From Escherichia coli (lineage in GTDB: Bacteria; Pseudomonadota; Gammaproteobacteria; Enterobacterales; Enterobacteriaceae): 64,000 nt of DNA. Both the position numbers and the translations under genes were made by a program. The stretch's first letter is position 1. Every line of letters starts with the position of its first letter. This document shows, one piece after another, positions 6,622 through 6,720 of this stretch. The notes beneath the pieces are model-generated. The model was not told where the DNA came from. It searched no databases and saw only the letters and a list, made by a program, of their open reading frames with translations. Where the stretch lies: the NCBI RefSeq assembly GCF_003018255.1, contig NZ_CP027440.1; one strand, written 5' to 3'.

Positions 6622-6720
6622 GCCGGATGCGGCGTGAACGCCTTATCCGGCCTACAAAACCTTGCTAATTCAATATATTGCAGGGACTATGTAGGCCTTA
6701 TAAGCATAGCGCATCAGGCA
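6622..6720. repeat. BIME: two REP (repetitive extragenic palindromic) units in inverted orientation
   Basis: gccggatgcggcgtgaacgccttatccggcctac at 6622-6656 and inverted partner gtaggccttataagcatagcgcatcaggca at 6689-6720; classic E. coli REP consensus in the convergent cmoB/torZ intergenic region. Confidence 0.85.

Follow-up and report, generated by a model that had tools for sequence, protein, structure and literature searches.

BIME-1 repeats at the cmoB-torZ and fliC 3' ends of Escherichia coli and their relation to the small RNA FliX

Two near-identical repeats, one in the cmoB-torZ spacer (locus A) and one downstream of fliC (locus B) of an Escherichia coli chromosome, can be assigned with confidence to the single-copy BIME-1 (RIB/RIP) elements of transcribed 3' untranslated regions (UTRs), the fliC copy having been co-opted as the small RNA (sRNA) FliX. 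Both lie in the window, i.e. the whole stretch of 64 000 nucleotides analysed here, which runs from yebC to fliF. Repeat class, copy number, context and strain polymorphism could all be observed directly. REP and BIME elements of E. coli have been catalogued over decades, both copies are typical of an element kind long known, and the finding itself is of small import; the lead worth keeping is the presence of the FliX seed in repeat-derived sequence.

A short-word self-BLAST of the window aligned 6621-6724 with 52629-52732 at 84.8% identity over 105 nt (E 7.7e-21), and a pattern search placed the 34-mer GCCGGATGCGGCGTRAACGCCTTATCCGGCCTAC exactly at 6622-6655 and 52630-52663, with no match to it in 100 shuffles. 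The first-pass annotation, which had described near-identical REP units at these two places and suggested such a self-alignment as a check, was right about the pair, and its gene names (cmoB, torZ and fliC) were confirmed by the annotation of matching genomes. Pairwise alignment took in both REPs and the linker, in equal order and orientation. Both copies are extragenic, locus A lying after the stop codon of cmoB (ORF 5635..6606, + strand), which converges with torZ (- strand, end at 6771), and locus B after that of fliC (- strand, end at 52771), with fliA (- strand) starting at 52452. No REP or RIP features were found in the K-12 RefSeq record, which holds coding sequences and fliX only.

The pair was the sole non-coding repeat detected in the window by self-BLAST, in keeping with the earlier statement that no other dispersed repeat family is seen there; the other repeat was the coding paralogy of tar and tap (21048-21559 versus 22749-23260, 75%). 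These latter segments encode the conserved signalling domains of two neighbouring chemoreceptor genes, tap and tar. In the window tap itself is an uninterrupted ORF of 534 aa, but in JNE23-011, the closest database strain, it is annotated as a pseudogene because of an internal stop. Self-BLAST also returned near-perfect palindromes at 35774-35796 (23 nt, araG-araF spacer) and 60624-60648 (25 nt, yedF-yedK spacer), probably terminator or operator hairpins.

Within the window the two copies match only each other, as they would after a private duplication or a gene conversion between them alone. We give that reading virtually no weight, and private duplication was rejected on copy number, the 104-nt element being present at at least 40 places per genome in 5425 of the 5426 genomes searched. 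Full-length relatives occur at rlmB-rnr and nagD-asnB, and the Y-side flanks of the two copies are unrelated in pairwise alignment. The same count, together with the location of both copies after stop codons, bears out their earlier description as a typical extragenic repeat of E. coli.

The reference for class assignment was the set of three E. coli REP sequences printed by Durrant et al. (PMC11208160). The consensus search, likewise proposed beforehand, returned at each locus one Y-type REP and one inverted Z1-type REP (identities in Table 1), with no more REP heads close by in the self-BLAST. The Z units of both loci lie on the opposite strand and have the 30-nt length of Z1 (Z2 being 37 nt), and the CTAC tail of Y and the GTAG tail of Z1 face each other across a 35-nt L linker, which is the tail-to-tail arrangement claimed for both loci. 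The two linkers also align with the L linkers of BIME-1 copies elsewhere. This is the composition given for BIME-1, i.e. Y plus Z1 in single copy around a long, well-conserved L linker, often with an IHF site (Ton-Hoang et al. PMC3333891; Nunvar et al. PMC2817692). Elements of this class derive from REPs and are non-autonomous.

Table 1. Positions in the window of the features of the cmoB-torZ copy (locus A), the fliC copy (locus B) and the third REP-like element.
Feature	Position	Strand	Basis or remark
cmoB stop codon TAA	6604..6606	+	ORF and annotation in matching genomes; Y REP starts 14-15 nt downstream
Segment missing from empty cmoB-torZ alleles, 130 nt	6610..6739		Alignment with MZ1211 and RIVM_C037884; E69 also empty
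Locus A Y REP, ends CTAC	6621..6655	+	34/35 to Y consensus; exact pattern match
Locus A L linker, 35 nt	6656..6690		IHF-like core ATTCAATATATTG at 6668-6680
Locus A Z1 REP, inverted, + strand start GTAG	6691..6719	-	27/30 to Z1 consensus
Locus A remnant of Z1-side external motif	6720..6739	-	Minus sense GGTTATGCAAACGTAAAACT; aligns with CTGATGACAAACGCMAAAACT of other loci
GC-rich hairpin AGCGCCCG-TTTC-CGGGCGCT	6742..6761		Between BIME and torZ stop; RNA fold
Third element, unit 1: 5' arm and loop of Y-like REP	17782..17800	+	Alignment with K-12, O157 and isolate 538
Third element, unit 2: REP-like palindrome	17801..17832	-	18-bp hairpin; just downstream of cheZ stop
FliX sRNA homologue, from fliC 3' UTR	52575..52767	-	K-12 fliX alignment
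fliC/FliX intrinsic terminator, CCCCGCC-AAC-GGCGGGG and T-run	52575..52597	-	Scan: 7 GC pairs then TTTTTT; RNA fold
Segment missing in R11 and B20105, 155 nt, the whole extended BIME-1	52598..52752
Y-side external motif with FliX seed TTTGTCAGCAAC (52604-52615)	52598..52628	-	M1 primer; shared motif
Locus B Y REP	52629..52663	+	35/35 to Y consensus; exact pattern match
Locus B L linker, 35 nt	52664..52698		IHF-like core ATTCAATAAATTG at 52675-52687; FliX-S 5' end inside
Locus B Z1 REP	52699..52727	-	28/30 to Z1 consensus
Locus B Z1-side external motif	52728..52752	-	Minus sense CTGAGACTGACGGCAACGCCAAATT; predicted pairing with seed in full-length FliX

The IHF-like cores, which sit at equal positions in the two linkers, each match 8 of the 9 specified positions of WATCAANNNNTTR, a grade of match that recurs in the window at a background of about one per kb and is weak evidence alone. 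From the linker class we infer that the L linkers can bind IHF at the DNA level. Binding of both gyrase and IHF had been attributed to these repeats; the IHF part stands insofar as it belongs to the BIME-1 linker class by definition, and the gyrase part does not, strong gyrase binding being a property of BIME-2 (Y plus Z2 in tandem; PMC3333891; PMC2817692). The mention of gyrase nevertheless raises the reading that the elements are BIME-2/naRNA4 sequences organising the nucleoid through DNA gyrase or HU, and the Y REPs do align to half of the RF02564 model (39.7 bits for locus A and 41.9 bits for locus B). Neither alignment reaches the gathering score of 59.5 or extends beyond the Y half; each partner REP is a Z1 of 30 nt and not a Z2 of 37 nt, and the elements are single rather than tandem. 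Membership of this family was rejected on the RF02564 score and the Z type, and, the HU-naRNA4 compaction model being itself disputed, we hold this reading to be extremely improbable.

Another Rfam family, ES036/CssrF (RF02751), scored locus A at 45.5 bits over 6656-6698, against a gathering score of 37.6, which would allow this copy to derive from a dedicated sRNA gene. The 43-nt model consensus, however, corresponds to the L-linker sequence and GUAGGCCU, and the match covers the linker only. Locus B matches the model too (27.6 bits, under the gathering score), and CssrF was defined between dacB and yhbZ in S. flexneri, whereas the present copies lie at cmoB/torZ and fliC/fliA. Derivation from an sRNA gene is thus very unlikely. 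A scan for a promoter near locus A found none. Since the consensus corresponds to the L linker, the match is restricted to that linker and the locus lies elsewhere, RF02751 appears by these alignments to describe the repeat and to mark a BIME-1 linker rather than an orthologous gene. The model may score at many BIME-1 copies, with the risk that repeats are mis-annotated as sRNA genes, and E. coli intergenic matches to ES036/CssrF, like partial ones to naRNA4, are to be read as repeats. Two further Rfam matches in the window concern other loci, namely a full-length MicL sRNA at 10634-10941 (- strand; RF02654, 371 bits), in and beside cutC as in K-12, and a C0465 RNA match at 24187-24264 (+ strand; 103 bits) between tar and cheW, where the che genes are on the other strand.

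The BIME-1 copy behind fliC deserves the label of FliX sRNA gene, an identity that the first-pass annotation had missed, the copy being the body of this sRNA. FliX is an Hfq-bound sRNA processed from the σ28-dependent fliC mRNA (Melamed et al. 2023, PMC10578931); its effects are a reduction of flagellin, of several ribosomal protein genes of the S10 operon and of the number of flagella, and it occurs in K-12 in forms of about 200 nt and about 100 nt, the shorter of which (FliX-S, ~100 nt) 'includes one of the REP sequences' and gives stronger phenotypes than FliX (PMC10578931). In the K-12 RefSeq record the ncRNA fliX (b4827) extends from 4 nt past the fliC stop to the terminator, and the window aligned with this region at 92% mean column identity (aligned region including short flanks). 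The fliX-M1 primer, which changes GCA to CGT within TTTGTCAGCAACG (Melamed et al. 2023, PMC10578931), implies a wild-type sequence identical to the seed of locus B, TTTGTCAGCAAC, and the nucleotides altered in the published mutant map to 52606-52608. The primer used for cloning FliX-S starts with GAATTTGCACATTTTTGTAGGCCGG (PMC10578931), a sequence that maps inside the L linker. Judged by these alignments, the fliC copy of BIME-1 is most of FliX, including its target-pairing seed.

The seed itself lies outside the REPs, in a motif that belongs to the extended repeat. When BIME-1 copies from the cmoB-torZ loci of other Escherichia, rlmB-rnr and nagD-asnB were aligned, the Y REP was followed by a conserved motif of ~26 nt, TGAACAAAGCGCAYTTTGTCAGCAAT, and the Z1 REP was preceded by CTGATGACAAACGCMAAAACT; the Y-side motif that bears the FliX seed is common to the copies at all of these sites. 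We take the two to be the 'A/B' external motifs of Gilson et al. 1991. The Y-side motif occurs at a median of at least 21 places per genome, and the Z1-side consensus motif at a median of at least 10. No consensus external motif was found in the window at up to 3 mismatches; in the FliX copy there the Y-side motif departs from the consensus at 5 positions of its 5' half, the seed half being intact, and locus A has no Y-side motif and hence no FliX-type seed.

Because the external motifs are partly complementary (TGACAAA/TTTGTCA), the unit of ~155 nt would fold into one long imperfect hairpin capped by the L linker. In thermodynamic folds the mean unpaired probability of the 12-nt seed was 0.37-0.40 in full-length FliX and 0.56-0.57 in FliX-S, that of the seed core UGUCAG rose from 0.00-0.09 to about 0.6, and the adjoining GCA stayed paired in a local hairpin in FliX-S. 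We infer from these predictions that cleavage in the L loop would expose a seed otherwise paired with the Z1-side motif, with a moderate change in accessibility; a more open seed in FliX-S would fit its published stronger activity.

Since the seed is contained in a motif of which a genome holds about 20 copies or more, BIME-1 could be a mobile cassette that brings a ready-made sRNA module, hairpin scaffold and seed together, into terminator-adjacent 3' UTRs, an idea we put forward tentatively and think rather unlikely. Were it true, BIME-1 copies elsewhere that are transcribed in the FliX sense may give rise to FliX-like regulators or to sponges competing for the same targets, the copies to consider being sense-oriented elements in which TTTGTCAGCAA is intact and a terminator follows; a strain in which the 155-nt unit is missing behind fliC would lack that arm of flagellar regulation. 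A repeat-borne seed would likewise link the origin and dissemination of sRNA regulators to a family of repeats that looks selfish. The link between BIME-1 and the FliX seed was not found stated in the FliX paper or in the other literature searched, and a literature search by the seed-motif string returned unrelated papers only.

Both loci are polymorphic among strains. The 321-nt fliC region was covered to at least 80% in 3502 of 5425 genomes, the full region being missing in about a third. In strains R11 and B20105 the missing segment is exactly the external motif, Y REP, L linker, Z1 REP and second external motif; what is left behind fliC is a short 3' UTR with the terminator, and these strains therefore have neither the body of FliX nor its seed. 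The cmoB-torZ spacer was occupied in 3884 of 5425 genomes, and alignment showed the element to be absent from MZ1211 and RIVM_C037884. In MS14386 the insertion sequence IS621, a bridge-RNA recombinase of the IS110 family, lies in the cmoB-torZ spacer directly after the GTAG of the Z1 REP (junction at ~455 in its locus, corresponding to 6694/6695 of the window). This fits the known targeting of REPs by IS621, the natural target of which is ATCAGGCCTAC (PMC11208160). An exact copy of that target occurs once in the window, at 52699-52709 in the Z1 REP of locus B and inside fliX; the Z1 REP of locus A has ATAAGGCCTAC in its place.

An outgroup scan with a degenerate cmoB 3'-end pattern returned six Escherichia loci in which occupied, empty, inverted and hairpin-duplicated alleles were mixed. 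E. albertii and Escherichia sp. E1V33 carry the cmoB-torZ allele of the window, E. coli E69 is empty, and E. coli SCPM-O-B-8794 has its BIME-1 in the opposite orientation; opposite elements were also detected in E. whittamii (3309-3545) and Escherichia sp. MOD1-EC7003 (3716-3950), with the hairpin TTTAGCGCCCGTTTCCGGGCGCT on both sides. As far as these sequences tell, the cmoB-torZ site has evidently been remodelled repeatedly, and, given the occupied allele of E. albertii, the empty alleles of E. coli could have arisen by deletion or by recombinational replacement. The occupied, empty, inverted and IS621-disrupted alleles offer natural controls for the effect of BIME-1 on neighbouring genes. 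At three loci (the spacer in MOD1-EC7003 and E. whittamii, locus A of the window on the minus strand, and nagD-asnB) the element directly adjoins the 3' foot of a hairpin with its Z1-side end, which may be a hint on the choice of insertion site. Elsewhere in the window, a fragment of an integrase gene lies between yedL and fliE (~62220-62365, per the closest annotated genome) and may be a mobile-element remnant.

The hairpin of 6742-6761 was kept in all the cmoB-torZ alleles compared, the empty ones included. A terminator scan made no call there, the T-run having only 4 T, and from its predicted fold the hairpin is likely a weak or bidirectional terminator. Its retention bears on whether transcription of cmoB, torZ and fliC is terminated by the REP pairs themselves. 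REPs are capable of partial, Rho-dependent or bidirectional termination, cmoB and torZ converge, and some 40% of the REPs located between convergent genes lie inside predicted bidirectional terminators (Harris et al. preprint). Past each REP pair, however, stands a separate structure, the canonical intrinsic terminator of 52575-52597 that forms the 3' end of FliX at locus B and, at locus A, the GC hairpin retained in alleles without the BIME; neither REP is followed by a U-tract. We consider it unlikely that the REP pairs are the terminators.

Each copy has a stop codon on one side and a terminator-type hairpin on the other, so that both would be transcribed as part of the 3' UTR. In the RNA, depending on context, the stable hairpins would block 3'-to-5' decay locally and serve as partial terminators; in the DNA, the L linker would bind IHF. 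At fliC the σ28-dependent transcript would yield FliX (~200 nt, BIME-1 and terminator) and FliX-S (~100 nt, from mid-L linker), the Z1-side motif sequestering the seed in the longer RNA until cleavage of the L loop frees it. Translation falls when a REP stands within ~15 nt of the stop codon, and the 14-15 nt between the cmoB stop and its REP are right at that limit. REPs have been described as both terminators and stabilisers that act locally in 3' UTRs and depend on context, convergent gene pairs with REPs being more highly expressed and terminal REPs having no genome-wide effect on half-life (Harris et al., 2026 preprint). Of the stabilisation of upstream mRNA that had been ascribed to the repeats, the context-dependent form is thus upheld for REPs and a genome-wide effect on half-life is not, so that stabilisation may not apply at the present two loci. 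For the copy at cmoB-torZ, by analogy, a role as local 3'-UTR terminator or stabiliser is the most to be said.

A third REP-like element had been placed at 17781-17835. It does exist, in the spacer from the cheZ stop codon (17841-17843) to the start of flhB, but in degenerate form: it matches the Y-REP head at 67%, neither of its units is flanked by GTAG or CTAC, and its fold is a hairpin of 18 bp (z = -4.3). In most strains, K-12 and O157 among them, two abutting degenerate REPs occupy this spacer. Compared with K-12 and O157 the window has lost 13 nt (GCCTTATCAGACC) at 17800/17801, between GCCT direct repeats, and with them the 3' arm of the Y-like unit 1. In K-12 this unit matches the Y consensus at 28 of 35 positions and in alignment shows one stem pair altered on both sides, from C-G to T-A. 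The best match to the third element fell only in the 80-90% identity band in 4094 genomes, and in the sampled records it spans 89 nt against the 76-nt query, i.e. the longer form. The element was found at a median of 1 place per genome (blastn, E <= 1e-3), a threshold strict enough for a 76-nt query that a weak family resemblance is still possible. Isolate 538 carries another, more canonical REP version at flhB-cheZ. By these alignments the third element is a decayed REP-pair relic, for which the term 'REP-like' is fair.

Compared with BIME-1 (RIB/RIP) elements as known, the two loci are alike in the Y REP, the inverted Z1 REP, the tail-to-tail arrangement, the L linker of ~35 nt and the IHF-type core, as well as in being single at each locus, in lying at extragenic 3' ends and in belonging to a family with tens of copies per genome. 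Nothing essential differs from a typical BIME-1; locus A is without the Y-side external motif, and its Z1 REP has two substitutions, one of which breaks the IS621 target. With BIME-2/REP325/naRNA4 (RF02564) both loci have in common the Y REP and a REP hairpin in the 3' UTR, but the former combines a Z2 of 37 nt with short linkers and tandem arrays, whereas the latter combine Z1 with an L linker in single elements. The model consensus of Rfam ES036 (CssrF) corresponds to the L-linker sequence, while the CssrF locus itself, dacB/yhbZ in Shigella, is a different one.

The RAYT (TnpA-REP)-mobilised MITE-like elements are similar to the present repeats in their terminal inverted motifs and whole-unit hairpin, in presence/absence polymorphism and in the occurrence of both orientations at one site; unlike in those elements, the window is without a transposase and neither of its two loci shows a classical target-site duplication. 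With FliX of K-12, locus B shares the seed TTTGTCAGCAACG, the terminator architecture and the place after the fliC stop, and in this strain 5 positions of the spacer 5' of the seed are different, the L linker and the loop of the terminator being slightly altered as well.
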